Origin: Escherichia coli
Lineage (GTDB): Bacteria; Pseudomonadota; Gammaproteobacteria; Enterobacterales; Enterobacteriaceae
Direction: 5' to 3' (one strand)
DNA: 64,000 nucleotides
NCBI RefSeq assembly: GCF_003019035.1
Contig: NZ_CP027447.1
Below the pieces are notes generated by a model. It saw nothing but the letters and a program-made list of their open reading frames with translations, had not been told where the DNA came from and did no database searches. Positions 27,054-32,564 of this stretch are shown in pieces. How positions within the stretch are numbered: the first letter of the stretch is position 1; every line of letters starts with the position of its first letter. The translations under genes and the position numbers were made by a program.

Positions 27054-28310
27054 TTATTTACTCATAGTATTGATATTGAAGACCTGTTCCAGCATGGGAT
27101 TGAACACAAAGCCTTTCACCTCTTTGTTCATCGCCAGTTGATAGTTTTTCTGGAACAGGTACACATAAGCAGCGTCATCAATGACGATTTTCTGTGCCTG
27201 CTGGTAGTCCCGGGTACGCTGCGTCTGGTCGGTGGTCGCTAGCGCATTGCGCAGTAACTTATCGACCTCACTGTTTTCATAGAACGAGCGGTTACCCGGC
27301 AGACCTTTTTTGTCGGACTCAAACCAGTAATTCATAAACATATACGGGTCGGCAAAATCCGGACTCCAGTTGCCAATCGCGATGTCGTAATCACCTTTAC
27401 CCACTCTGTCGCGCATGGTGGCGTTCGCCAGCTTTTCCAGCTTCACATTGATGCCCAGCTTGTTGAGACTGGATTGTGTCGCCAGAGCAATAGGCTCCCA
27501 GTTCGGATCATTATCAGAATAGAGAAACGTCAGGCTGGTGGGTTTGCTCGTCACTTTATCCCATTCGGCTTTGGCTTTCGTTTCGTCATGGTTGTATTGC
27601 ATTGCCGTCGCATCGTATCCCCACATGCCTTCCGGAATCGGGCCGCGCATCTGTTTTCCGTTACCACTCAGAATGCCGTTAACCATTCCCTGATAATCGG
27701 TAGACCAGGAAATGGCCCGACGCAGATCCGCCTGATTAAGTGGCGCTTTGCTGTTATTCAGATACAGATAGGTGACGCGCAGTGACGGATACTCTGCCAC
27801 ATTGACTTTGTTTTCCTGCTTCAGTGCGTTGAGTTGATCCACCGGCAGCGCATCGGCAATGTCAATGTCGCCACGGGAGAGCTGCAGGCGACGGGAAGCA
27901 CTTTCACCGATAATTTTTACCGATACCCGTTTGAAATTCGGTTTATTGCCGGGGTAATGCGGATTTGGCACCAGAACTAATTGCTGACCTTTTTGCCAGC
28001 TTTTCAGCATAAACGGTCCGGAGCCAGCGGTATTTTGCGCGAGGAAACCACGGGCATCATCCGCCGCATGCTCCTTTAAGACCGCCGGATTGATAATGGA
28101 TGCACCGTCATTCGCCAGCGTGTAGAGGAACGGTGCGAATGGCTGGCTAAGGGTAAACCTCACTATATGTTCGTCGGGAGCATCAATCTTTAAATCTTTG
28201 GGAAATGCTTCTGCTGGCCCCTGGCCGATTTTTAGTAACCGCTCAAAAGAGAGTTTTACTGCTTCGGCAGTGACAGGTGTGCCATCGGCAAATTTAGCAT
28301 TGTCCTTCAG
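27054..28310 (-). pseudogene. ddpA: ddpA periplasmic dipeptide-binding protein, 5'-truncated by prophage insertion
   Basis: Reading frame runs without stop from 27054 up to the prophage junction at 28310 (ORF track shows only 27054..28163 from an internal GTG); about 418 C-terminal residues remain, signal peptide and first ~98 codons absent. Confidence 0.85.
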
Positions 28311-28490
28311 TGTATTGATTCACTTGAAGTACGAAAAAAAACCGGGAGGACATTGGATTATTCGGGATCTGATGGGATTAGATTTGGTGGGGCTTGCAAG
28401 CCTGTAGCGCAAATTTTAGTCGTTAATCAATGAAACGCGAAAGATAGTAAAAAATTGCTTTTGTTTCATTGAAAATACGAAAAACAAAAA
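28311..28490 (+). repeat. Prophage left end (attL) with transposase-binding sites L1-L3
   Basis: Terminal TG; end-binding repeats TGATTCACTTGAAGTACGAAAA (28317-28338), TGAAACGCGAAAGATAG (28431-28447), TTGTTTCATTGAAAATACGAAAAAC (28461-28485). Confidence 0.75.
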
Positions 28491-28649
28491 CACTGCAAAT
28501 CATTTCAATAACAGCTTCAAAAAACGTTCAAAACCGATAACAACCAGGCTGTAACCAAATGACTCATATCACAAATCAGCTCATGCCGTTTAGGTATGTT
28601 ACATGTGTGATTATGTGAGGTGAAGTATGTTTTAGCTGGTTCATGGTTG

Positions 28650-29168
28650 TTATACGGCTTTTTTTACATCTTGTGGTTCTTGCGAAGGAGCTACAAGACC
28701 TTCCTGTTCATGAATACCATGCTCTGACAAAATCTCTTTGCGCTCTTCTGCTGGTAAAGTTTCTAGCATTTGGGCGAGTTGTATGCACTCACGCGATACG
28801 CCGTGCAGAGATTGGATTTGAGTCTGATCAAAGATACTTGGCATTAGTGCACTAAGTCCACCTTTACTAAGTAGCTTTAATGCCCTCTGGATTTCCTCTG
28901 GTTCTAACTCTGCAACCAAAGCCATTAACACAGAAGCTAACTTATAAGCTGACTTATCGTTATCTAATAACTGCGCCCCTCCTAATTCTGCCTGAGTGGC
29001 ATCAGGTAATGAGCTGATATGGTATTCATAAGCAACACCCTTTACTCCTTTGATCTGTCTCTTTTTCCATCCCTCATTAGTTGCTTTGCGGCTAATACTA
29101 CTTGCTGAAGACGGAAGACCAGCAACCCCTTGTAGCTCTTTAGCTGAAAACCATTCTTGTGTCATCAC
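28650..29168 (-). CDS. c: Prophage repressor c (D108-type N-terminal DNA-binding domain, Mu-like C-terminal domain)
   Basis: 172-aa ORF facing the left end; C-terminal ...[13 protein letters not shown]...[15 protein letters not shown]...[12 protein letters not shown] matches the Mu repressor family; N-terminal domain is homologous to the transposase N-terminus in this window. Confidence 0.8.
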
Positions 29169-29356
29169 AAACCTCGCTTTAAATACACGATGTATTCAAA
29201 GAAATGAAAAATATATTCACTTTAAAATCATCGAGATAGATGAATTTCAAACAAAACATTTGAATACACTATTGCATTGACAATGTATTCACACTAGCAT
29301 TACTGCATACCTTATCAGCTACCTTGCGGCGTAGCTGATGGCGTAGCTTGTGAGGA
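29169..29356. promoter_or_regulatory. Operator / early promoter / enhancer region between c and ner
   Basis: At least four copies of TGTATTCA(C) or its complement at 29191, 29212, 29261, 29284; divergent c and ner starts flank it. Confidence 0.6.
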
Positions 29357-29365
29357 TTGCATTTT

Positions 29366-29584
29366 ATGGCGATAAAGAAAAGTAAATGTGAAGACAAAAG
29401 TAGATACGACATTGTTGCTGATCTGCGCAAAAGAGGAAAAAGCCTAGCAGCTCTTGGTCGTGAGAACGGTCTCTCTATCTCTACGGTAAAAAATGCCTTG
29501 GATAAACCTTACCCTCGGGGGGAAAGAATCATTGCCGATGCATTGGGAGTTGAGCCACGAGACATCTGGCCTTCGAGGTATTGA
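29366..29584 (+). CDS. ner: Ner-family DNA-binding early regulator
   Basis: ORF 29357..29584; likely ATG 29366 with GAGGA RBS; [72 protein letters not shown] (Ner/Nlp family). Confidence 0.8.
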
Positions 29585-29586
29585 AA

Positions 29587-31587
29587 ATGCAACCACAATG
29601 TAATGATTGGTTTTCTGCAAAGAAATTAGAAGGGCTGATAGGTCTTCCAAAATCCTCTAGCGCGATCTCTCGTAAAGCAAGGTTAGAACAGTGGGTGTTT
29701 CGACAGATACACGGGGTAAGAGGAGTAGCCTATGAGTTTCATATCTCATCTTTACCAAAGGAAACGCAAGCTGCGTTGTTGCTTAGACAAGGAGAGATCG
29801 AAACAAGCCAGGGCCGTTTTGAAATCGCCCGCCCCACGCTGGAAGCCCATGATTATGATCGTGAGGCACTGTGGAGCAAATGGGATAACGCCAGCGATTC
29901 CCAGCGCAGACTTGCTGAAAAATGGTTGCCTGCGGTTCAGGCCGCAGACGAAATGCTGAACCAGGGGATTTCAACAAAAACGGCTTTTGCGACCGTTGCA
30001 GGGCATTACCAGGTCAGCGCATCCACTTTGCGGGACAAGTATTACCAGGTACAGAAGTTTGCGAAGCCTGACTGGGCGGCTGCGCTTGTTGATGGACGTG
30101 GTGCATCCCGTCGCAACGTTCACAAAAGTGAATTTGACGAGGATGCCTGGCAGTTTCTGATTGCAGATTATCTGCGACCGGAAAAGCCCGCCTTCCGCAA
30201 ATGTTATGAGCGTCTGGAACTGGCAGCCCGCGAGCATGGCTGGAGTATTCCCTCCCGTGCCACGGCCTTTCGCCGGATTCAGCAACTGGACGAGGCAATG
30301 GTTGTTGCCTGTCGTGAAGGTGAACATGCACTGATGCATCTGATACCGGCACAGCAGCGAACTGTGGAACACCTGGACGCCATGCAGTGGATCAACGGCG
30401 ACGGTTATCTGCATAACGTCTTTGTACGCTGGTTTAACGGTGATGTGATCCGCCCGAAAACATGGTTCTGGCAGGATGTGAAAACCCGAAAAATTCTGGG
30501 CTGGCGCTGCGATGTGAGCGAGAACATTGATTCAATTCGCCTCTCGTTCATGGATGTTGTGACTCGCTACGGTATCCCGGAGGATTTTCACATCACCATT
30601 GATAACACCCGTGGTGCTGCGAATAAATGGCTGACGGGAGGCGCGCCCAATCGCTACCGCTTTAAGGTAAAAGAGGACGATCCAAAAGGACTGTTTTTAC
30701 TGATGGGGGCGAAAATGCACTGGACAAGCGTTGTTGCCGGTAAAGGCTGGGGCCAGGCAAAACCTGTTGAACGTGCTTTCGGTGTTGGTGGGCTTGAGGA
30801 ATACGTTGATAAGCATCCGGCACTGGCTGGCGCATATACGGGGCCTAATCCGCAGGCAAAACCTGATAACTATGGCGACCGCGCTGTTGATGCAGAGCTG
30901 TTTCTGAAAACCCTTGCCGAAGGTGTGGCGATGTTCAATGCCAGAACAGGCCGTGAAACAGAAATGTGCGGAGGCAAACTTTCGTTTGATGACGTTTTTG
31001 AGCGTGAATACGCCAGAACGATTGTGCGTAAGCCTACCGAAGAGCAAAAACGGATGCTGTTACTGCCTGCCGAGGCGGTGAACGTTTCACGTAAAGGCGA
31101 GTTCGCGCTTAAAGTTGGCGGCTCCCTTAAAGGTGTGAAAAACGTTTATTACAACATGGCGTTAATGAATGCCGGAGTGAAAAAAGTTGTGGTCAGATTT
31201 GATCCACAGCAGTTACACAGCACGGTTTATTGCTACACCCTGGACGGTCGGTTTATCTGTGAAGCGGAATGTCTGGCACCTGTTGCGTTTAATGATGCTG
31301 CGGCAGGCCGTGAATATCGCCGCCGCCAGAAACAACTGAAATCTGCGACGAAAGCAGCAATTAAGGCACAGAAACAAATGGATGCACTGGAAGTGGCAGA
31401 GCTGCTGCCGCAGATAGCCGAACCTGAAGCACCAGAATCACGAATTGTCGGCATTTTCCGGCCTTCCGGTAATACGGAACGGGTGAAGAATCAGGAGCGT
31501 GATGATGAATACGAAACTGAGCGTGATGAATATCTGAATCATTCGCTGGATATTCTGGAACAGAACAGACGTAAAAAAGCCATTTAA
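29587..31587 (+). CDS. A: Transposase A (DDE transposase/integrase of Mu family)
   Basis: ORF 29581..31587; likely ATG 29587; from about residue 60 onward matches Mu A as I recall it ([10 protein letters not shown]...[28 protein letters not shown]...), N-terminal ~55 aa differ. Confidence 0.9.
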
Positions 31588-31625: not shown

Positions 31626-32564
31626 ATGAATATTTCCGATATTCGCGCAGGACTGCGCACGCTTGTAGAAAATGAAGAAACCACCTTTAAACAAATTGCT
31701 CTTGAGAGCGGACTTTCTACCGGAACTATCAGTAGTTTTATCAATGATAAGTACAACGGGGATAACGAGCGTGTTTCACAAATTCTGCAACGCTGGCTGG
31801 AAAAATATCATGCAGTTGCAGAACTACCTGAACCGCCCCGCTTTGTGGAAACGCAGACGGTAAAACAAATCTGGACAAGTATGCGTTTTGCCAGCCTGAC
31901 TGAAAGTATTGCTGTTGTGTGTGGCAATCCTGGTGTGGGCAAAACCGAAGCGGCCCGTGAATATCGCCGCACCAATAACAATGTCTGGATGATCACCATT
32001 ACGCCATCCTGTGCCAGCGTTCTTGAATGTCTTACTGAACTGGCGTTTGAGCTGGGAATGAATGACGCACCACGCCGTAAAGGGCCGCTCTCCCGCGCCC
32101 TGCGACGTCGCCTTGAAGGTACACAGGGGCTGGTTATCATCGACGAAGCTGATCATCTTGGTGCCGAAGTTCTGGAAGAACTCCGCCTGTTACAGGAATC
32201 AACCCGTATTGGCCTTGTGCTGATGGGAAATCACCGGGTTTATTCAAATATGACGGGGGGTAACAGAACGGTTGAATTTGCCCGTCTGTTTTCCCGTATT
32301 GCAAAGCGCACTGCAATTAATAAAACCAAAAAAGCCGATGTAAAAGCTATTGCGGATGCCTGGCAGATTAACGGCGAAAAAGAACTGGAGTTATTACAGC
32401 AGATTGCGCAGAAACCAGGTGCGCTTCGCATTCTGAATCATTCACTTCGCCTTGCCGCCATGACGGCTCACGGTAAAGGTGAGCGTGTTAACGCAGATTA
32501 TCTGCGTCAGGCTTTCCGTGAATTAGACCTGGACGTTGATATTTCAACGCTGCTGCGTAATTAA
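31626..32564 (+). CDS. B: Transposition target-DNA activator B (AAA+ ATPase)
   Basis: 312-aa ORF with Walker A GNPGVGKTEA and Walker B VIIDEADHL; immediately after A. Confidence 0.9.
   Translation: MNISDIRAGLRTLVENEETTFKQIALESGLSTGTISSFINDKYNGDNERVSQILQRWLEKYHAVAELPEPPRFVETQTVKQIWTSMRFASLTESIAVVCGNPGVGKTEAAREYRRTNNNVWMITITPSCASVLECLTELAFELGMNDAPRRKGPLSRALRRRLEGTQGLVIIDEADHLGAEVLEELRLLQESTRIGLVLMGNHRVYSNMTGGNRTVEFARLFSRIAKRTAINKTKKADVKAIADAWQINGEKELELLQQIAQKPGALRILNHSLRLAAMTAHGKGERVNADYLRQAFRELDLDVDISTLLRN

Follow-up and report, generated by a model that had tools for sequence, protein, structure and literature searches.

Inverted motif pairs between the divergent c and ner genes of a Mu-like prophage in Escherichia coli as candidate repressor operators and transposition enhancer

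The stretch of Escherichia coli DNA analysed here (the window, 64,000 nucleotides) contains a Mu-like prophage, whose left end at 28311 is followed by the genes c, ner, A and B. Over its first 460 bp, the prophage is 95% identical to the left end of Mu (from base 1 of the Mu record), and at the DNA level the resemblance to Mu is confined to this end and to the 3' end of c. The prophage features that frame the locus are:

28311 to 28340, plus strand: Mu-type left end, TGTATTGATTCACTTGAAGTACGAAAAAAA, beginning TGTATTGATTCACTTGAAGTACG; the reference point for distances.
28650 to 29165, minus strand: c repressor, an open reading frame of 171 aa with an N-terminal winged-helix DNA-binding domain (PF02316, E = 4.9e-23).
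29366 to 29584, plus strand: ner, 72 aa (PF13693, E = 2.1e-25).
29587 to 31587, plus strand: transposase A (PF02316, E = 3e-44; PF09039; DDE_2; Mu-transpos_C).
31626 to 32564: B, which follows transposase A.

The left end interrupts a host gene for a family-5 solute-binding protein (SBP_bac_5; 27054-28310, minus strand). Its reading frame is open as far as 28310 and the Pfam match starts at position 77 of the profile; the 5' part of the gene must be located outside the window, on the far side of the right prophage end.

A preliminary description of this DNA had placed a region of repeated motifs at 29169-29356, between divergent c and ner genes. The Pfam matches agree with the identity of both genes (PF02316 in c and PF13693 in ner), and the region does lie between them, but its right border needs a small correction. 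The start codon of c is the ATG at 29165, and ner most likely starts at the ATG at 29366, as in phage PhiR68_1 and in the RefSeq annotation, so that the c-ner intergenic region extends from 29166 to 29365.

The motif TGTATTCA occurs exactly at 29191 (plus strand), 29261 (minus strand) and 29284 (plus strand), and no other exact copy is present on either strand of the 64 kb. The repetition that had been described is partly confirmed. The count of at least four copies holds less well, as the copy at 29212 reads TATATTCA, with one mismatch to the 8-mer, and is poorly conserved, whereas an invariant copy with a single mismatch (TGTATTTA, 29180-29187, minus strand), which forms an 11-nt inverted repeat with the copy at 29191, had been overlooked. 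The proper count is three exact and two near copies, to which we refer as S1 to S5:

29178 to 29187, minus strand: S1, TGTATTTAAA (plus strand TTTAAATACA), left arm of a proposed operator O1.
29191 to 29200, plus strand: S2, TGTATTCAAA, an exact copy and the right arm of the proposed O1.
29212 to 29220, plus strand: S3, TATATTCAC, a doubtful or auxiliary site; the 29212 copy of the preliminary description.
29259 to 29268, minus strand: S4, TGTATTCAAA (plus strand TTTGAATACA), an exact copy and the left arm of a proposed operator O2, abutting the -35 element of the proposed early promoter Pe.
29284 to 29293, plus strand: S5, TGTATTCACA, an exact copy and the right arm of the proposed O2, within the Pe spacer.

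The arms of S1/S2 (29178-29200) and of S4/S5 (29259-29293) are inverted, and their relative orientation is the same in both pairs; the spacers measure 3 nt and 15 nt, respectively, and the centres of the pairs are approximately 87 bp apart. The first pair adjoins the start of c and the second surrounds the likely Pe, so that the copies form two clusters at 868-983 bp from the left end. A third operator, comparable to O3 of Mu, which covers the Mu repressor promoter, was searched for in 29294-29365, where no copy with at most one mismatch is present; the nearest copy beyond S5 is TGTCTTCA at 29389 (minus strand), within ner. In the coding 5' end of ner, TGTCTTCACA (29387-29396, minus strand) has one mismatch to the 10-bp site, and this region and the S5 region form a 21-nt inverted repeat that is 71% complementary. 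The terminal octamer of the prophage left end (28311-28318, TGTATTGA) also has one mismatch to the operator motif; as Mu has the same end but a different operator specificity, this likeness is probably a coincidence.

The motif frequency was compared with dinucleotide-preserving shuffles of the AT-rich 188-bp region itself (35% GC). Three exact copies stand against a shuffle mean of 0.023, and five copies with at most one mismatch against a mean of 0.40; none of the 5000 shuffles reached either count, which places the frequency above the expectation for AT-rich DNA that the preliminary description had asked to be checked. The degenerate 10-mer TGTATTYAMA is matched perfectly at four places in the 64-kb window, all of them inside 29178-29293. 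The repetition of the motif is real and non-random.

Conservation was assessed in 10 distinct versions of the intergenic region, taken from E. coli genomes, PhiR68_1, IMG/VR, metagenomes and two divergent variants (L005 and L007, in which c is 84-87% identical). A scan of viral contigs with c gave only two loci and a scan of metagenomes with the pattern of the Ner operator (see below) three near-identical ones; the divergent relatives were obtained through protein look-ups, in which P0011 and P0014 proved to be of the Mu type and added nothing. Among the 10 relatives, variable columns number 0 of 10 in S1, 2 of 10 in S2, 3 of 10 in S4 (all singletons) and 1 of 10 in S5, where GTATTCACACTA is invariant. 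Together these four sites have 6 variable columns out of 40, compared to 47 out of 98 in the rest of 29176-29313 (Fisher p = 2.4e-4), a footprint that rests on few independent substitutions, since most relatives are 95-98% identical. Hypervariable spacers are found at 29188-29190 (the 3 nt between S1 and S2), 29204-29207 and 29233-29257.

Further evidence comes from a locus in Sodalis (L018), which keeps TGTATTTAAA, TTTAAATACA and, at the position of S5, GGTATTCAC at colinear positions amid otherwise diverged DNA; the form of the motif kept there is GTATT(C/T)A. The N-terminal domain of the Sodalis c is approximately 63% identical (counted from the alignment), and its C-terminal part is much less similar. 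S3 behaves differently from the other sites: 6 of its 9 columns are variable, it is absent in Sodalis, and both divergent variants carry AACTTTTAT in its place. As S3 is replaced outright in these variants, it is at best auxiliary, and we dropped it as a fourth operator copy.

The sequence around and between the two pairs contains several further candidate elements:

29226 to 29238, plus strand: candidate IHF site, AATCATCGAGATA, preceded by the conserved TTTAAAATCA; proposed by position only.
29272 to 29277, plus strand: proposed Pe -35 element, TTGCAT, invariant in the 10 relatives.
29295 to 29300, plus strand: proposed Pe -10 element, TAGCAT, which is TA[G/A]CAT in 10 of 10 relatives and follows TTGCAT after 17 nt.
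29314 to 29348, no strand assigned: predicted Ner-type operator, ATCAGCTAC-N8-GTAGCTGAT at 29314-29339, followed by a third, direct GGCGTAGCT at 29340-29348.

The proposed Pe scores only 7 out of 12 to the consensus. A strict promoter scan of 28600-29700 reported no promoter, and a relaxed scan gave candidates of 7-8 out of 12 only. S4 and S5 bracket the invariant TTGCAT-17-TAGCAT pair, itself a 7/12 match; as S4 abuts the -35 element and S5 fills the spacer, bound repressor would occlude Pe. At the colinear position D108 has TTGATT-17-TACATT, which, judged by the D108 sequence, is likely to be the early promoter of that phage. The leftward promoter of c was not located in the relaxed scan of the region; the candidates, none of them assignable, are TTGTCA-17-AATGTT (29283 to 29255) and CTGATA-16-TAGTGT (29318 to 29291).

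The conserved block that starts with TTTAAAATCA spans 29221-29238, between the two site pairs. The candidate IHF site within it has two mismatches to WATCAANNNNTTR, which is no better than chance matches elsewhere in the region. At the colinear position, the IHF consensus is perfect in Mu, in the Sodalis locus and in another Mu-like locus (L020), and has one mismatch in D108, in both divergent variants (L005 and L007) and in a further locus (L021).

Between Pe and ner, we find an inverted repeat with an AGCTAC core and an 8-bp spacer, as a Ner operator of the D108 type requires. Its arms vary in 1 of 9 columns each, the 8-nt spacer in 5 of 8 and the third copy in 0 of 9. In this third copy GGCGTAGCT is repeated directly at a distance of 12 bp (29328-29348), which adds to the operator a third GTAGCT half-site immediately ahead of the ner ribosome-binding site; this half-site is invariant in 10 of 10 relatives and absent from D108. 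The D108 Ner operator (CCGTGAGCTAC-N8-GTAGCTCACGG, an 11-bp inverted repeat) lies at the same place and has the same core (AGCTAC-N8-GTAGCT), with other outer arm bases than the one described here. The Ner protein is 65% identical to that of D108 and 48% identical to that of Mu.

In Mu, the enhancer is bound by the I-alpha domain of the transposase, a winged helix-turn-helix (PMC3362531); published work depicts operator and enhancer as a single element, O/E, and cites the similarity of the N-termini of c and A for Mu and D108 (PMC3820752). The enhancer increases transposition about 100-fold, with IHF acting at the enhancer (PMC5847225). The counterpart of this domain in the prophage is:

29599 to 29778, plus strand: I-alpha-like N-terminal domain of A (residues 5-64), the presumed second reader of S1 to S5.

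Residues 2-61 of c and residues 5-64 of A are 65% identical over 60 residues, compared to 55% in D108 and 42% in Mu, and this higher identity argues for selection that keeps both readers matched. The N-termini of both proteins match solved winged-helix domains, those of MuA I-alpha (1TNS) and of the Mu repressor (1G4D), with E-values for c of 6.7e-7 and 1.1e-6, respectively. It had been proposed that the motifs are bound by a shared winged-helix domain; the presence of such a domain in c and A is well supported by these matches, whereas its binding here, by c as well as by A, is something we infer by analogy. The c variants of this immunity type hardly differ in the DNA-binding domain, where residues 3-54 change at two positions only (14 and 44); most substitutions fall in the C-terminal half, which drifts. 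The near-invariance of this domain matches the conservation of the sites.

The c-ner region is colinear with that of D108 and SfMu. Gene order and spacing are the same (c, O1, IHF, O2/Pe, Ner operator, ner), there are likewise four colinear half-sites in two inverted pairs approximately 85-87 bp apart, the second pair brackets a promoter of the TTGNNT-17-TANCAT type, and an IHF-like block (AAAATCA...) lies between the pairs. In contrast, the motif itself differs: D108 and SfMu carry motifs of the TGATTTCA type at the four positions where this prophage has TGTATTCA. At the positions of S1, S2, S4 and S5, D108 reads GGATTTTAAA, TGATTTCAAT, TTTCAAATCA/TGATTTGAAA and TGATTCCACA, respectively, so that all four sites differ, and the consensus sequences are distinguished by a swap of TA and AT at motif positions 3-4. 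The c repressor is 39.5% identical to that of D108 overall and 57% identical in the DNA-binding domain. With this level of identity and four different sites, the prophage falls outside the D108 immunity group. D108 reportedly has two repressor operators and no O3, as Kukolj and DuBow are said to have described in 1991, an arrangement like the one observed here, and D108 has a footprinted IHF site.

In Mu, the operator/enhancer (O1-O2-O3, IAS) also occupies the interval from c to ner, at a distance of approximately 0.9-1.0 kb from the left end; repressor and transposase likewise have a common N-terminal winged-helix domain, and O1 and O2 are separated by an IHF site that fits the consensus perfectly (position 947 of the Mu record). 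The same DNA serves as operator and as enhancer (PMC3820752, PMC3362531). However, the Mu repeats resemble CTTTT(C/T)AGTAA (CTTTTCAGTAA type), unlike TGTATTCA, and Mu has an O3, which was not detected here between O2 and ner. The Mu repressor is 46% identical overall and 33% identical in the DNA-binding domain; with this identity and with DNA similarity only at the left end and in the 3' part of c, the prophage does not belong to the Mu immunity group either. In the comparison with D108 and Mu operators that the preliminary description had suggested, the copies are colinear with the D108/SfMu repeats; the immunity region is that of neither phage, so the Mu and D108 footprints are not transferable base for base.

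The closest relatives are PhiR68_1 (PV340575) and 14 E. coli prophages, in which the c-ner region is 95-99.9% identical, with the same sites and no difference of substance. PhiR68_1 is the only close phage record (97%), with the genes annotated merely as repressor, Ner and transposase, and no operator annotation was found in its record or in those of its relatives. Literature on D108 operators, heteroimmunity and PhiR68 yielded nothing on this immunity type, and a paper that mentions PhiR68 phages does not treat the regulation of PhiR68_1. To our knowledge, the specificity of the half-site predicted from these sequences, TGTATTCA(A/C)A, has not been characterized before. The architecture is that expected of the operator/enhancer region of a Mu-like phage; the specificity is what is new.

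Taken together, we consider it probable (roughly 80%) that the TGTATTCA-type motifs are half-sites for the winged-helix N-terminus common to c and A, which would form the operators O1 and O2 as well as the transposition enhancer. This reading, which upholds, with corrections, the operator/enhancer assignment made in the preliminary description, is supported by the identities of c, ner and A, the distance to the left end, the colinearity with D108 and SfMu and the selective conservation of the sites. By analogy with Mu, enhancer activity, repression and an involvement of IHF would be expected of the region. O1 would consist of S1/S2 beside the start of c, to which the weak S3 may or may not contribute, and O2 of S4/S5, which bracket the -35 element and fill the spacer of the rightward Pe. 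In a lysogen, repressor oligomers would occupy O1 and O2, probably across an IHF bend, shutting off Pe (ner-A-B) and denying A the same DNA, thereby masking the enhancer. After induction or loss of repressor, the I-alpha domain of A would use the same sites as a transposition enhancer, helping the synapsis of the ends, and Ner would bind the separate inverted repeat at 29314-29339, damping Pe and the promoter of c.

It is conceivable that the sites serve the c repressor alone and that an enhancer function is absent or located elsewhere, as transposition in vitro can, under some conditions, do without the enhancer (PMC3362531). We consider this unlikely, however, in view of the similarity between the N-terminus of A and the DNA-binding domain of c, which exceeds that in D108 and Mu.

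The conserved blocks could also be promoter or UP-element sequences or sites for nucleoid proteins (IHF, Fis, H-NS), with the common 8-mer being incidental. The low GC content of the region, the overlap of S4 and S5 with the proposed promoter and the many weak IHF-like matches that overlap the S sites are all compatible with such an explanation. Nevertheless, the same 10-mer is present in both orientations at S1/S2, far from the promoter, and from one immunity type to another the motif changes in all four places together, with little change in the promoter and IHF-like blocks that flank it; with the outcome of the local shuffles, this makes the explanation distinctly improbable.

Chance repetition of a functionless sequence in AT-rich DNA is also disfavoured, like the promoter or nucleoid-protein explanation, and we regard it as very improbable. 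For the whole window, the count of three exact copies is in itself unremarkable, being equalled in 26 of 100 shuffles, and a de novo control for the post hoc choice of the motif was only moderately strong, with any 8-mer occurring at least three times in 16 of 2000 shuffles. Yet all copies fall within 116 bp, no local shuffle matched the counts, and the selective conservation (p = 2.4e-4) and the motif kept in the distant Sodalis locus are left unaccounted for. Also disfavoured, and scarcely credible, is that S1/S2 work at the RNA level, as a leader hairpin that controls translation or stability of the c transcript, rather than as a DNA site: an 11-bp stem is predicted in the minus-strand RNA just upstream of the c ribosome-binding site, but it folds with -9.3 kcal/mol (z = -1.05; 29 of 200 shuffles fold as well), a search of Rfam was without match, the pairing lacks support from compensatory changes because the arms are invariant, and S4 and S5 would be left unexplained.

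We lean, with some reserve, towards a third immunity and enhancer specificity among the Mu-like phages of E. coli and Salmonella, heteroimmune to Mu and D108, in which the half-sites are set apart from those of D108 essentially by the central TA/AT swap, a change that repressor and transposase would have tracked together. Mu and D108 are the classic pair in which a domain common to repressor and transposase lets both proteins read the same DNA; if the proposal is true, Mu, D108 and the present type constitute a natural three-way set for the co-divergence of repressor, transposase and site. It offers a simple two-base hypothesis for the separation from D108. For annotation, O1, O2, Pe and the Ner operator can now be placed, as predictions, in these prophages; the understanding of the mechanism is unchanged.

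Similarity of the recognition helix was considered as a predictor of the motif (S-x-ISRKA here, TNITRKA in D108) and rejected: a relative (P0019) has ...LSSISRKA... like the present c, yet its locus repeats TGTGATTGC/TGATTTC in the other orientation, so that helix similarity alone does not predict the motif. In this locus (L020, 1002-1200), which has its own repeats of this kind, the pair around the -35 element is oppositely oriented. Another locus (L021, encoding P0013, 714-898) has repeats of its own that read TGATTTCA, and in both loci an IHF-consensus site is retained between the motif clusters.

In a set of 5426 complete E. coli genomes, 14 contain the present immunity region, compared to 45 with the D108 type and about 25 with the Mu type, and a protein cluster of the present type is recorded in Salmonella, too. 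The predicted sites apply to an uncharacterized immunity group that comprises these 14 genomes, Salmonella and the isolated phage PhiR68_1. Strain MIN10 (NZ_CP069677.1) carries a region with a 99.9% match to that of the window together with a c-ner region of the Mu type, and 22KM0354 (NZ_CP151071.1) carries the present type, a D108 type and a Mu type each at its own place in the chromosome. Heteroimmune prophages would be able to coexist in this way, and a separate specificity is consistent with the stacking of Mu-like prophages in one host, as in these natural double and triple lysogens; if true, it would explain how up to three Mu-like prophages per cell can be carried without cross-repression or enhancer cross-talk.

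The C-terminal half of the repressor is also found in another context. In some E. coli proteins (P0016 and P0017; H59, NZ_CP178401.1), this half is shared at 55% identity, and the N-terminus is a helix-turn-helix of the Cro/C1 type (PF01381) where the Mu winged helix would be; here the DNA-binding domain of a Mu-like immunity region has apparently been exchanged.
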